DNA of 64,000 bases from an uncultured Candidatus Rokubacteria bacterium (lineage in GTDB: Bacteria > Methylomirabilota > Methylomirabilia > Rokubacteriales > CSP1-6), in assembly GCA_963707305.1 (NCBI GenBank), contig CAVPPZ010000012.1, forward strand, positions 378,370-442,369, in the 5' to 3' direction. The translations under genes and the position numbers were made by a program. Below are positions 24 through 56,457 of this stretch, in pieces. Within the stretch, counting starts at the first letter, position 1; each line of letters begins with the position of its first letter. Below the pieces are notes generated by a model, which was not told the origin of the DNA, did not search any database, and saw only the letters and a list, made by a program, of their open reading frames with translations.

Positions 24-1325
24 GTGGCCAGTCCGGAACGCTCGCGCCCAGGCCGGGTCGTCTTCATCACCGGCGCCTCCTCCGGCATCGGCGCCGCCCT
101 CGCGCGCGAGTACGCGCGGCGCGGCGCCGACCTCGCGCTCGCCGCGCGCCGCACCGACCGCCTGGAGGAGCTCGCACGCGAGCTCACGTCGCGCGGGCGG
201 CGCGCGCTCGTGCTCGCCTGCGACGTGACCCGCGACGGCGATCTCGAGACCGCCGCCGCGCGCACGCGCGAGGCGTTCGGCCGGATCGACGTCGTCGTGG
301 CCAACGCCGGCTTCGGCGTGGTCGGCCCCGTCGCGCGGCTGCGGCTCGACGACTTCCGCCGCCAGTTCGAGACCAACGTGTTCGGCGTGCTGCGGACGAT
401 CTACGCGACGCTGGACGACCTCAGGCGCTCGCGCGGCCACCTCGCCATCCTGGGCTCGGTCAGCGGTCACCTCGCCACGCCGGGCGGCGCCCCGTACGCG
501 ATGAGCAAGTTCGCGGTGCGGGCGCTCGCCGAAGCGCTGCGCCACGAGCTGCGCCCCGCGGGGGTCGGCGTCACGCTCATCAGCCCGGGGTTCGTCGAGA
601 GCGAGATCCGTCTCGTCGACAACCAGGGGACGCTCCGGACCGAGGGACGCGACGCCGCCCCGGCCTGGCTGCGGATGGACGCGAACACGGCGGCCCGGAA
701 GATCGTGCGCGCGATCGAGCGTCGCAAGCGCGAGGCGGTCATCACCGGGCACGGCAAGGCGGCGGTCTTCGTGCAGCGCCATCTGCCCGGCGTGATGAGC
801 GCGCTGGTCGGCCTCTCGGGCTATCGCGGCCGGCACGAGCCAGCGAGGCGCCACTCGCGCCGCGGGAGCTCAGCCGCAGCGCGATCGATCGGGCACGTAC
901 GCCGGGAACACGCTGCGCAGCACGTCGGGCGCGGCGACCGACAGAAATCCCGCCACGAGCTTGCGGGCCGCGCCGCGCACCGCGACGAAGGTGATGGCCG
1001 CCGTGGCGACGAGCGTCCCCGCGTCATCCCACGCGGAAATTGCGGTGTCCCAGTACCGAGGATCGTCGGGCCGCTGGTGCACGTCAGCGCGGCGTCCCTC
1101 GACGACGAATGCGCCGCGCCGAACGCGACCGGCGCGTGCAGAGCAATCCGCAGATCGGTCGTCATCCCGGATTCGCCGGACGCTGCCGCCCCGAGCCAGA
1201 ACGCCGCTTCGTCGAGCAGGGCGGTGAGCGCAACCGGCGCGAGCGTCCCGTCGGCGCGACGCAGAGCGTCGAGCGGCGTCCATGTTCCGCCGATGACGTC
1301 GTCGTCGATCGTGAGCCGAGCGTGA
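24..1325 (+). CDS. short-chain dehydrogenase/reductase (SDR); only ~24-850 looks like genuine SDR sequence
   Basis: Rossmann motif VVFITGASSGIGAALA, NAG, catalytic Y-x3-K (PYAMSKFAV). GTG start at 24. ORF tail 850-1325 is Arg/Ala-rich and antisense to a thioesterase gene, so the true stop is probably lost to an indel near 830-870. Confidence 0.75.
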   Translation: MASPERSRPGRVVFITGASSGIGAALAREYARRGADLALAARRTDRLEELARELTSRGRRALVLACDVTRDGDLETAAARTREAFGRIDVVVANAGFGVVGPVARLRLDDFRRQFETNVFGVLRTIYATLDDLRRSRGHLAILGSVSGHLATPGGAPYAMSKFAVRALAEALRHELRPAGVGVTLISPGFVESEIRLVDNQGTLRTEGRDAAPAWLRMDANTAARKIVRAIERRKREAVITGHGKAAVFVQRHLPGVMSALVGLSGYRGRHEPARRHSRRGSSAAARSIGHVRREHAAQHVGRGDRQKSRHELAGRAAHRDEGDGRRGDERPRVIPRGNCGVPVPRIVGPLVHVSAASLDDECAAPNATGACRAIRRSVVIPDSPDAAAPSQNAASSSRAVSATGASVPSARRRASSGVHVPPMTSSSIVSRA

Positions 1326-1385
1326 AGCCCAAGCGGATTCTCTGTCCCGCACGCGAAGCACGATCTTCGCGAGCGGCAGGATCAT
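870..1385 (-). CDS. PaaI-type hotdog-fold thioesterase, frame broken at least twice
   Basis: Pieces from three frames join: CFACGTENPLGLHARLTIDDDVIGGTWTP...ALLDEAAFWLGAAASGESGMTTDLRIALHAPV then FVVEGRRADV...YWDTAISAWDDAGTLVATAAITFVAVRG. Breaks near 1360 and 1110. Confidence 0.6.
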   Translation of the reverse strand: MILPLAKIVLRVRDRESAWASRSAHDRRRRHRRNMDAARRSASRRRDARAGCAHRPARRSGVLARGGSVRRIRDDDRSADCSARAGRVRRGAFVVEGRRADVHQRPDDPRYWDTAISAWDDAGTLVATAAITFVAVRGAARKLVAGFLSVAAPDVLRSVFPAYVPDRSRCG

Positions 1386-1400
1386 CGACTCGCGTGATGT

Positions 1401-1552
1401 CGCGGGAGGCACGGCGGCGGAGGCGGGCGGGGCCGGCGGGGGTGTGCCGCGGACATCAGCAGGTCGGGAGTGGGCGAATGCCCACTCCCGACATCGCAGG
1501 CCGCGGAACACCCCCGCCGGCCCCGCCCGCCTCCGCCGCCGTGCCTCCCGCG
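1401..1552. repeat. 152-bp nested palindrome (perfect 45-nt arms plus inner 13-bp hairpin)
   Basis: 1401-1445 is the exact reverse complement of 1508-1552. Inner hairpin gtcgggagtgggc (1463-1475) / gaat / gcccactcccgac (1480-1492). Core shared with the repeat at 55635-55759. Confidence 0.9.
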
Positions 1553-1843
1553 CCGCCCGGGTCGTCGATGGTCCCGTCGACGAGAAGCGTGCTTCTGTCG
1601 GACAGATGAAACCGCGTGGCATCGCGCGAGACGACGAGCTGGAGCGGCGTGGCGAGGGGAACGCGCCGACGATAGGTGCCGGCGAGAACGCGAGGCCGGC
1701 ACGCGGGCGCGAGCGCGTCGAAGAGCGCGAGGACGGTGCCGCCGTGCGCGGTGTCGGGCAGACCCTGGAAACGAGGGTCGAGCGGTGACGGTGCCGTCGC
1801 CGGTCGCGCAGCGGCGGAGGATCTCGTCGGTGGGCGTGGTCAT
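1456..1843 (-). CDS. hotdog-fold thioesterase-like protein, frameshifted; 3' end runs into a palindromic repeat
   Basis: MTTPTDEILRR..GDGTVT continues in another frame as LDPRFQGLPDTAHGGTVLALFDALAPA...LQLVVSRDATRFHLSDRSTLLVDGTIDD (break ~1783). The stop at 1456-1458 lies inside the repeat. Confidence 0.5.
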
Positions 1844-55116: not shown

Positions 55117-56457
55117 ATGAATACCTTCGACATCCGCAAGCCCGAGTTCTGGGACCGGAACGACGTCGATGGCGAGCTGAGGCGCGTCTACGACATCTGT
55201 AACGGGTGCCGGCGCTGCCTGCCGCTGTGTCCGTCGTTCAAGGTCATGTTCGACCGCATCGACGCCGACGTCGTCGACGGCGACGTCGAGAAGCTGCCGG
55301 CGAGCGAGGTCAAGGAAGTCGTCGACCTCTGCTACCAGTGCAAGCTCTGCTACAACCACTGCCCGTACACGCCGCCGCACCGGTGGGCGGTGGACTTCCC
55401 GCGGCTCATGCTGCGCTCGCGCGCGTCGGAGGCGAAGGCGAGTGGCGTGAGCCTGCAGGATCGCATGCTCGGCAACACCGATCTCGTCGGCACGATCGGC
55501 AGCCTCACCGCGCCGCTGTCGAACTGGATGAACGAGTTCAGCGCGCACCGCGCGCTGCTCCAGGCCGTGGCCGGCATTCACAAGGACCGCGAGCTCCCGC
55601 GCTTCCATCGCGAGACCTTCAGTAAGTGGTTCGCAGAGAGCCAGCGCCGAGGGGCGGGGCGGCGAGGGGTCACCGCCTTGCGAGCGGGACGGGCGAAGCC
55701 CACTCCCGACCGCAGACGCGGCGCCCCACGCAGCCCGCCGCCTCGGCGCGTGGCTCTCTTCGCGACGTGCACGGTCGAGTACAACGATCCCGCCATCGGG
55801 CGCGCGGCCGTCGGCGTGCTCGAGAAGAACGGGATCGACGTGAGCCTGCCCCAGCAGCGCTGTTGCGGGATGCCGTACCTCGACGGCGGGGCCATCGACG
55901 AGTGCCGGGCGCTCATGCGCGACAACGTGAAGACGCTGGCGGCCGCGGTGCGCGAGGGGTGCGAGATCGTGTCGCCGGGGCCCACGTGCAGCTACATGCT
56001 CAAGCAGGAATATCCCTGGCTCGACGGCTCGGAGGACGCGAAGCTGGTCGCGAGCCACACCAAGGACCTGTTCGAGTACCTCGCGGGTCTGCACGCGGCC
56101 GGCGCCCTCGACACCCGGTTCCCGCGCGCGCTGGGGAACGTCACGTACCACGTGCCGTGCCATCTCCGCGCGCAGAACATCGGCACGAAGTCGGCCGACA
56201 TCCTGCAACTGGTCCAGGGGACGAAGGTCGACGTGGTGGAGCGATGCTCCGCGGTCGACGGCACCTGGGGCTTCAAGAAGGAGTATTTCGAGTTGTCGAT
56301 GAAGGTCGCGAAGCCACTGTTCGACGCGGTCCGGCAGGGCGGGCCGGTCGCGGCCACCGATTGTCCCCTCGCCGCGTTGCAGATCGGGCAGGGAACGGGG
56401 CAGAAGGCGCGTCATCCGATCCAGCTCCTCGCGCAGGCGTACGGGCTCGAGCCGTGA
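55117..56457 (+). CDS. (Fe-S)-binding protein, GlpC / heterodisulfide-reductase-related (2x4Fe-4S plus CCG domains)
   Basis: CNGCRRCLPLCP and CYQCKLCYNHCP clusters; CCG-type motifs ..TCTVEYN..CCGMP.. and ..YHVPCH... Intact ORF carrying an Arg-rich insert at aa ~174-214. Confidence 0.8.
   Translation: MNTFDIRKPEFWDRNDVDGELRRVYDICNGCRRCLPLCPSFKVMFDRIDADVVDGDVEKLPASEVKEVVDLCYQCKLCYNHCPYTPPHRWAVDFPRLMLRSRASEAKASGVSLQDRMLGNTDLVGTIGSLTAPLSNWMNEFSAHRALLQAVAGIHKDRELPRFHRETFSKWFAESQRRGAGRRGVTALRAGRAKPTPDRRRGAPRSPPPRRVALFATCTVEYNDPAIGRAAVGVLEKNGIDVSLPQQRCCGMPYLDGGAIDECRALMRDNVKTLAAAVREGCEIVSPGPTCSYMLKQEYPWLDGSEDAKLVASHTKDLFEYLAGLHAAGALDTRFPRALGNVTYHVPCHLRAQNIGTKSADILQLVQGTKVDVVERCSAVDGTWGFKKEYFELSMKVAKPLFDAVRQGGPVAATDCPLAALQIGQGTGQKARHPIQLLAQAYGLEP
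55635..55759. repeat. ~125-bp imperfect nested palindrome related to the 1401-1552 repeat, inside the Fe-S gene
   Basis: Outer arms agagagccagcgccgagg / cctcggcgcgtggctctct; centre cgggacgggc-gaa-gcccactcccgac. Shares gggcgaa, gcccactcccgac and cgcag with the first repeat. Confidence 0.75.

Follow-up and report, generated by a model that had tools for sequence, protein, structure and literature searches.

A genus-restricted hairpin repeat of Rokubacteria with a conserved centre and long arms unique to each copy

A nested palindrome in the linker of a thioesterase-like gene

The window, i.e. the whole stretch of 64,000 nt that was analysed (C12:378370-442369), is part of a 5.63 Mb assembly of 29 contigs with 70% G+C (G000), the host of which is an uncultured soil bacterium of the Methylomirabilota/Rokubacteria. 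Two members of the same genus served as close relatives, 'Candidatus Rokuibacteriota bacterium M_DeepCast_50m_m1_133' (G001) and 'Ca. Methylomirabilia bacterium OBJ_0618_7090110_167' (G002), and all compared genomes are metagenome-assembled genomes (MAGs). A long palindrome occupies a thioesterase-like ORF of the window, and a degenerate relative lies in an Fe-S oxidoreductase gene (Table 1).

Table 1. Coordinates of the palindrome, its parts, its host gene and related elements (window positions unless a locus is named)
Feature	Position	Strand	Description
Host gene, thioesterase-like ORF	870..1843	-	4HBT match in N-terminal half
Full imperfect palindrome	1374..1579	.	79-nt arms, 85% complementary
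Palindrome base	1379-1389 (GGATCATCGAC) vs 1564-1574 (GTCGATGGTCC)		host coding sequence in mirror image; exactly the same register as the perfect arms
Left outer arm	1401..1445	.	G-rich, 45 nt, perfect complement of 1508-1552
Right outer arm	1508..1552	.	C-rich, pairs with 1401-1445
Family-conserved asymmetric core	1429..1525	+	covariance model R1: 99 bits (+) vs 65 bits (-)
Conserved stem within core	1438-1445 (GGGGGTGT) / 1508-1515 (ACACCCCC)
Inner stem within core	1447-1452 / 1501-1506		CCGCGG
5' unpaired motif	1452..1462	+	GACATCAGCAG; family consensus GACATTAGCG
Apical hairpin	1463..1492	+	GTCGGGAGTGGGC / GAAT / GCCCACTCCCGAC
3' unpaired motif	1490..1500	+	GACATCGCAGG; consensus GACATAGCAGG; near direct repeat of 5' motif
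Degenerate family member	55635..55759	-	in frame (~41 aa), between 4Fe-4S (Fer4) and CCG domains of ORF 55117-56457
G002 MITE loci	L034, L042, L046, L055, L057 (e.g. L042:5080-5290); also L017 (G002:C175)

Recomputation reproduced the inverted repeat of the original prediction exactly, as 1401-1445 is the reverse complement of 1508-1552 in 45 of 45 nt. The second perfect hairpin that had been described in its centre was also recovered (1463-1475 / 1480-1492; 13 nt, 100%, 4-nt GAAT loop), and in the inverted-repeat search the outer repeat extended to 1374-1452 / 1501-1579 (79 nt, 85%). Folding of 1370-1585 yielded -199 kcal/mol compared to -118 +/- 5 kcal/mol for shuffled sequences (z = -16), and none of 200 shuffles was as good, in agreement with the claim that the repeat is far beyond chance. 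The 13-mer GCCCACTCCCGAC was found three times in the window (at 1463 on the minus strand, at 1480 and 55698 on the plus strand) where 0.33 occurrences were expected, demonstrating that the proposed link of the element through its core to the one at 55635-55759 is real.

An E-value scan of 1300-1650 against Rfam 15 gave MIR1858 as best match on both strands, with 63.5 bits compared to a gathering score of 137. This match was discarded as a generic similarity to a long (plant miRNA) hairpin. With respect to an intrinsic terminator, no T-tract follows the hairpin on either strand, and the sole terminator-like site in 1250-1700 is located at 1629-1612. A target-site duplication was not seen at the window copy.

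The element had been placed at the junction of two thioesterase genes, where it was thought to cover the stop codon of an upstream hotdog gene (1456-1843). This context had to be revised. The interval 1456-1843 is not a multiple of three, and the ATG at 1843 is out of frame with the stop at 1456-1458. In G001, the orthologue of the window locus is one ORF of 286 aa, of which the N-terminal half matches 4HBT and the C-terminal half is conserved without a Pfam match. The window element therefore lies within the internal linker of a single gene and is not intergenic.

In G000, the ORF at 870..1843 is interrupted; indels lie close to 1362, at 1461 and towards the N-terminus (~1790-1843). Base 1461 (A) is extra relative to both the family consensus and an independent contig (X8, see below), and the minus-strand TGA at 1458..1456, which is in frame, results from it. 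Without this base, the N-terminal frame reads through the whole element (...DDPGGAGGTAAEAGGAGGGVPRPAMSGVGIRPLPTADVRGTPPPAPPASAAVPPATSRESMILPL...) into the C-terminal half. The consensus of the family core is open in four of six reading frames and thus readable as a Gly/Ala/Pro-rich peptide. Because of this read-through and of the open frames, the supposed upstream stop codon most likely stems from an indel, due either to misassembly or to a mutation of recent date. With base 1461 discounted, and only then, the window element is an in-frame linker insert like the element at 55635-55759. The latter element is contained in the uninterrupted ORF 55117-56457 of the Fe-S oxidoreductase gene; its core runs opposite to the gene and no longer has the TAATGT loop with its stop. 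The congeners also carry a palindromic insert at this position of the Fe-S gene.

Contigs from X8, an independent public sequencing run of a relative with ~88-90% identity, reach across the left arm into the beginning of the core at the window locus and stop short of the right arm (1522-1558). Relative to the window, they show differences in 5 of the 45 nt of the left arm (1410, 1411, 1414, 1415 and 1421) and at 42 positions over 342 nt of the flanks, which is about the same rate. The window arm has not mutated unusually fast, yet the two arms in G000 are still complementary at 45 of 45 positions. The X8 contigs are without the extra A at 1461 and show an indel relative to the window at 1362; in all, two of the G000 indels are absent from them. 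The window itself was contained in none of the indexed sequencing runs (all shares ≤0.09).

Single-base indels are frequent in the G000 assembly and break conserved genes, among them the thioesterase-like gene and GAPDH (C9:~205,000), and they probably explain the completeness estimate of 68% for a 5.6-Mb assembly of 29 contigs. These errors are what could be cited for an assembly or fold-back read artefact. Such an explanation has virtually no probability, as the core is common to 27 loci of the same architecture, related palindromes occur in two congener MAGs assembled from short reads, and the independent X8 contigs cover the left arm and the core start at the same locus.

A family of 27 oriented copies with a co-varying core

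Searching the whole G000 assembly with the 13-mer GCCCACTCCCGAC, as had been suggested, yielded 21 exact matches at 12 loci, and with a profile HMM (nhmmer) and a covariance model built from the copies 27 loci were identified (family 1). The repeat is hence not limited to the two copies of the window. A palindromic repeat family of REP/MITE-like appearance had been postulated, and the 27 loci together with their presence or absence at orthologous sites of congeners bear this out. At each locus one strand scored 40-50 bits above the other with the covariance model, showing that the element is asymmetric and oriented.

The core consensus comprises ~95 nt (window 1429-1525) and reads GGGGGTGTGACGCGG-ACATTAGCG-GTCGGGAGTGGGC-GAAT-GCCCACTCCCGAC-ATAGCAGG-CCGCGGAACACCCCC. 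Two unpaired motifs, GACATYAGCG and GACATAGCAGG, are its best-conserved positions; they flank a co-varying apical hairpin, which is bordered by the near direct repeats GACATTAGC / GACATAGC, and a short conserved stem encloses the whole. In the alignment of the core 96% of the cells were paired and double changes were detected in 20 of 33 pairs, while slid controls were ~45% paired and none of 500 shuffles reached the observed score. Within the apical hairpin, compensatory double changes across copies affected 6 of the 13 pairs, and subfamilies have compensatory pairs in common. A hammerhead-like CUGAUGA box on the minus strand was considered and rejected, since its position differs among copies.

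Most copies are intergenic and several are located within genes at inter-domain linkers. Many adjoin the TAG/TAA stop codons of convergent genes, and the stop codons beside the elements are mostly TAG or TAA. The heptamer GTAAGCG, of which only 79 occurrences exist in the 5.6 Mb of G000, is yet found at the boundary of at least 12 palindromic elements, e.g. at the left boundaries of C7_58252, C11_31500, C12_322054, C12_447734, C25_199127 and C25_504876; at many of its other occurrences smaller hairpins come next. It may represent a preferred stop-codon context or a target motif. The occurrence of TAG/TAA and GTAAGCG at element boundaries fits a preference for TA targets as well as the survival of only those insertions that are adjacent to stops, and proves neither.

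The arms are specific to each copy

For all 27 copies, the only BLAST match of an arm in 5.6 Mb was its own partner arm. From ~15 nt beyond the core outward, copies are no more identical to each other than their base composition predicts, and in the window the part of the left arm outside 1429-1445 is found in this copy alone. The palindromes have a total length of 135-280 nt with 36-111 paired nt and perfect runs of up to 52 nt. A descent of the arms from a common ancestral arm was rejected, as no positional identity above base composition and no cross-matches were detected.

Mismatches within the arms are distributed evenly between G:T and A:C (47 vs 52 in family 1, and 56 vs 51 in family 2, a second palindrome family described below). 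The lack of a wobble bias indicates that complementarity is a property of the DNA rather than of one selected RNA strand; as neither strand showed an excess of G:U, selection of the arms at the RNA level was rejected. These data also bear on the proposal that the repeats are structured RNAs, i.e. cis-regulatory 3' elements or sRNAs under RNA-level selection rather than mobile DNA. Strong covariation with conserved unpaired loops, the location of copies at gene 3' ends and a GCGAAGC/GNRA-like loop in some copies would agree with it. We regard it as improbable, because no Rfam family is matched, the arms are Watson-Crick perfect on both strands without wobble bias, copies lie in either orientation to genes and also inside coding regions, and they are present or absent among congeners.

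A derivation of the arms from the local sequence of the empty site was also considered; it applies to five loci, and there to no more than the outermost 7-36 nt. At the sites of C25_40053 and C6_84941 the congener genes abut, leaving no spacer that would be able to supply arms. Host coding sequence is mirrored at the palindrome bases of C11_8809, C6_131714, C7_58252, C25_390886 and the window copy. In these cases, host coding sequence conserved in congeners makes up the outer end of one arm, and the other arm carries it inverted. The mirrored stretch amounts to 13 nt (GCTCCTCGACGTC) from the N-terminus of an OppF-like gene at C11_8809, ~36 nt from the C-terminus of the right-hand gene at C6_131714, ~18 nt at C7_58252 and CGCGTAG at C25_390886; in the window copy 1379-1389 and 1564-1574 correspond in exact register.

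Whichever strand is read, the arm on its 5' side is rich in G and the one on its 3' side rich in C (26/27 and 28/31 copies). A polarity relative to the core, with the left arm of the core being the G-rich one, was rejected, as the bias is a property of the palindrome itself and independent of core orientation. The G-rich 5' arm is not accounted for by a template-switch model of arm maintenance and is counted against it.

Occupied and empty sites in congeners

At five sites, namely C25_40053, C6_84941, C25_390886, C11_8809 and the window locus, the whole palindrome is absent in G001. In three of them (C25_40053, C6_84941 and C25_390886) the convergent genes of G001 abut or overlap their stops, e.g. 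in CTAG, and the window locus measures 44 nt in G001 vs 168 nt in G000. In G002 the whole palindrome is absent at C25_296073 and C25_504876. The copies are thus polymorphic among relatives, be it by insertion or by deletion. CTAG...CTAG flanks were found at C25_40053 and C6_84941; CTAG is self-complementary, which makes these flanks indistinguishable from a part of the palindrome. Other element flanks are inverted (TTAG...CTAA, CTGA...TCAG).

Other sites are shared between the genomes and have differing arms and lineage-specific cores (C14_104856, C21_291999, C25_383483 and the Fe-S gene); C14_104856 and the Fe-S gene are occupied in all three genomes. In the linker of the CobB-like gene at C21_291999 the cores of G000 and G001 are in opposite orientations. 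The orthologue of C21:291999 in G002 (L029, G002:C177, ~1963-2041) shows a perfect 16-bp hairpin, GCGACGGCGCTCGGG CTGCCGT CCCGAGCGCCGTCGC, without the family core. Unrelated palindromes occupy the sites of C14_229117, the window locus (hotdog-gene linker) and C25_504876 in a congener. The arms at orthologous loci of G000 and G001 were no more alike than those of random pairs, so that what speaks for vertical inheritance of the copies at shared sites is their common position.

Related palindromes and their distribution

With the covariance model of family 1, G002 yielded ~10 divergent copies and G023 a single one, and 38 further genomes of the family and order yielded none. A search of 185,579 GTDB species genomes and of JGI metagenomes for the exact pattern of the apical stem, TCKGGAGTGGGCNNNNGCCCACTCCMGA, came back empty. 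A looser motif, GACATYCGCAG..CGAGGACAGGA, was multi-copy only in the two congeners, and the ~8 single matches elsewhere look like chance. A variant core that lacks the apical hairpin (GACATCCGCAG-N6-9-CGAGGACAGGA) is present in G001 at least 13 times, again with copy-specific arms, and of the six variant loci that could be mapped four carry family 1 in G000.

A genome-wide scan of G000 returned only 62 long palindromes, 23 of which are family 1 while most others belong to family 2. The latter has a conserved, non-palindromic core of ~130 nt (...GACATATTTCCATCGA...; ...CCCCGACAGTGTTTGGCGCGGTCCTGCGCTGACATATTTCCATCGAACTCGCGAGCACGTACCGAACCCGGTGCGGGGGACGG...) with 31 motif matches genome-wide, and its copy-specific G-rich/C-rich arms often start right at TAG/CTA stop codons. 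Both families are confined to the genus. Examples of family 2 are C14:174867, C25:258559 and C28:88835, and none was seen in the window; a third, small palindrome family (...CCCCCTCTGGGGGTTAGGGGG...) is also present in G000.

In G002 a classical MITE of ~200 nt was found in at least 10 copies (Table 1), with conserved terminal repeats (GCCTGGATTATTCATGAGC... / GCCTGGATTATTCATGAGCGGGG..) and TA target duplications, mostly at CTAG. Its centre, GACATCCGCAG..CGAGGACAGGA, is the same central motif as in the variant core of G001, and two inverted halves of this motif form an internal loop in its stem, so that the MITE looks like one element nested inside another.

Taken together, these comparisons bear on the main rival of our preferred reading, according to which only the ~95-nt core with its short GGGGGTGT/ACACCCCC ends is mobile and integrates specifically at the dyad centre (apex) of hairpins already present. 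In that case the unique arms would predate the core, as hairpins of the site or as earlier elements, and the nesting would arise by repeated invasion of the apex. Several observations agree with this: the same sites carry different or oppositely oriented cores in G000, G001 and G002; the CobB-like linker has an arms-only 16-bp hairpin in G002 compared to cored palindromes in G000 and G001; the split inverted motif halves of the G002 MITE enclose, as an internal loop, a newer central core; the apical hairpin of family 1 lies between near direct repeats (GACATTAGC / GACATAGC); and the compensatory pairs common to subfamilies imply that cores spread recently relative to the divergence of the arms. 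However, at no fewer than five orthologous sites the congeners lack arms and core alike, uncored long hairpins are almost absent from G000, as nearly all of the 62 long palindromes are cored, and an enzyme for such a reaction is neither known nor was one found. We therefore consider mobility of the core at hairpin apices unlikely.

Search for a mobilising enzyme

A RAYT gene elsewhere in the genome had been named as a possible companion of the repeats. Domain searches for RAYT/IS200-type Y1 transposases (PF01797) gave no match in G000, G001 and G002, with the G000 and G002 assemblies being incomplete, while 6 of 14 control genomes were positive. The absence of PF01797 from three genomes alongside positive controls argues that family 1 is not a classical REP-RAYT system. 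A conserved GTAG head as in REP is absent as well, the hairpin being flanked by ..TAGCG and ATAGCAGG. Conserved terminal inverted repeats were not detected either, since the outer termini differ in 27 of 27 copies and only the internal stem GGGGGTGT/ACACCCCC is kept. From the REP/MITE-like character initially assigned to the element, the existence of a family was upheld, whereas a classical REP-RAYT system and conserved terminal inverted repeats were not, the former for want of PF01797 and the latter as arms are copy-specific.

That these repeats are classical REP/REPINs mobilised by a RAYT (Y1 HUH transposase) is largely refuted and very improbable. Their palindromic nature, their mostly extragenic location just past stop codons and tens of lineage-specific copies would suit it; PF01797 is missing from all three genomes despite 6 of 14 positive controls, there is no GTAG head, the centre and not the arms is conserved, and the elements are 135-280 nt long.

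IS630-type transposases (DDE_3, PF13358) had no match in G000 or G002. G001 harbors an IS630-family element at L066:938-2075 (G001:C21) with a DDE_3 match of 98 bits and 27-nt terminal inverted repeats (AGCTAATGAATCTCGCGGAATAAGTTA), in at least four copies in G001 and in none in G000 and G002. It was examined as cognate element and rejected because its terminal repeats (AGCTAATGAATCTCGCGG...) are unrelated to family 1. The PF01797 and DDE_3 searches thus revealed no autonomous element with matching ends.

Discussion

The element at 1401-1552 is real and securely placed in a genus-restricted family of nested palindromes that are present or absent between relatives. It is equally secure that the family tolerates in-frame positions within genes and that it is neither a REP-RAYT system nor a known RNA family. 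It is one of at least 27 copies of a hairpin repeat that had not been described before, with conservation of the centre and long arms that no two copies share.

The explanation that we favour, and hold to be probable, is that 1401-1552 is a genus-restricted, non-coding hairpin repeat akin to MITEs, REPs and RPEs, the arms of which are kept perfect by template switching at the DNA level. Dispersal would be carried out by a trans-acting enzyme. The sister family in G002, with its conserved terminal inverted repeats and its TA duplications, resembles elements that IS630/mariner-type transposases mobilise. Many copies are probably old and vertically inherited. Complementarity of the arms would be kept by intramolecular template switching or by hairpin-templated correction of DNA and presumably not by selection on an RNA stem, and the same DNA-level process could sometimes extend arms into the flanking gene ends. 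That cores are alike within a genome and different between congeners would be due to gene conversion or to re-invasion of the palindrome centre. Intergenic copies are probably strong bidirectional 3'-end hairpins with a putative role as transcript-end stabilisers or insulators, and genic copies are probably tolerated passengers.

We put forward tentatively a further possibility, namely that only the central core is inherited or homogenised, and that the arms are made, or rewritten time and again, locally by fold-back/template-switch copying around the core hairpin or captured when a hairpin apex is invaded; the repeats would then form a new class of bacterial palindromic element. If so, palindromes would grow outward up to the terminal codons of the neighbouring genes and at times overwrite them, and the cores would evolve in concert in each genome with chromosomal sites staying constant across species.

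Interspersed palindromic repeats such as REP, ERIC, Correia elements and RPE are known mainly from Proteobacteria, and our literature search retrieved nothing relevant on such repeats in uncultured Rokubacteria. REPs and REPINs with their RAYT transposases have been described for Pseudomonas and Enterobacteria (PMC3116915, PMC3337134). Like these, family 1 consists of short palindromic interspersed repeats that lie mostly just downstream of stop codons in tens of copies and are lineage-specific, apparently long-lived and vertically inherited. In contrast to REPINs, in which the arms (REPs) are conserved and the loop is variable, family 1 has a conserved centre and unique arms; it is also without a RAYT gene, spans 135-280 nt and lies with some copies in frame within genes.

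A second group for comparison are the TA-targeting MITEs of the IS630/Tc1-mariner type, e.g. the Correia elements of Neisseria. These share with family 1 that they are palindromic, non-coding, 100-200 nt long and present or absent between relatives. Moreover, family 1 adjoins TA-containing sites (TAG/TAA stops), and its sister family in G002 has terminal inverted repeats and TA duplications. Family 1 itself differs in that conserved termini, a clear target-site duplication and an IS630-type transposase are lacking.

The Rickettsia palindromic elements (RPE) of ~100-150 bp can insert in frame in protein-coding genes, where they are read as an extra peptide. They are mentioned in PMC1779305 and PMC1458961. 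The element at 55635-55759 resembles them in being in frame, as does 1401-1552 once base 1461 is discounted. RPEs differ in being unrelated in sequence and host phylum, and the present repeats are mostly intergenic and have arms specific to each copy.

Template switching of the polymerase between the arms of an inverted repeat homogenises and expands the arms and inverts the spacer (PMC8604942, PMC13100816, PMC8794818), and such quasipalindrome mutation both creates and maintains hairpins (PMC8794818, PMC8604942, PMC13100816, PMC7202029). Homogenisation of arms, outward expansion into the flanks and inversion of the spacer are all present in our data. As a mutational process, however, template switching leaves the conserved core and its dispersal unexplained.

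Family 1 inverts the usual pattern of conservation, as its centre is conserved and its long perfect arms are unique. Shared sites with lineage-specific cores and mirrored coding bases constitute a natural data set for the origin and upkeep of long perfect bacterial palindromes, e.g. by template switching or hairpin-directed correction, for the concerted evolution of dispersed repeats, and for the reshaping of gene ends and inter-domain linkers by such elements. On the practical side, the elements break short-read MAG assemblies, and in long-read assemblies that are prone to errors they cause genes to be called as split by mistake. In G001, short-read contigs terminate within palindromes at L033 (C58), L032 (C80), L054 and L060, indicating that the elements fragment MAG assemblies. 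At the element in the Fe-S oxidoreductase gene, two G001 contig ends overlap by 25 nt.
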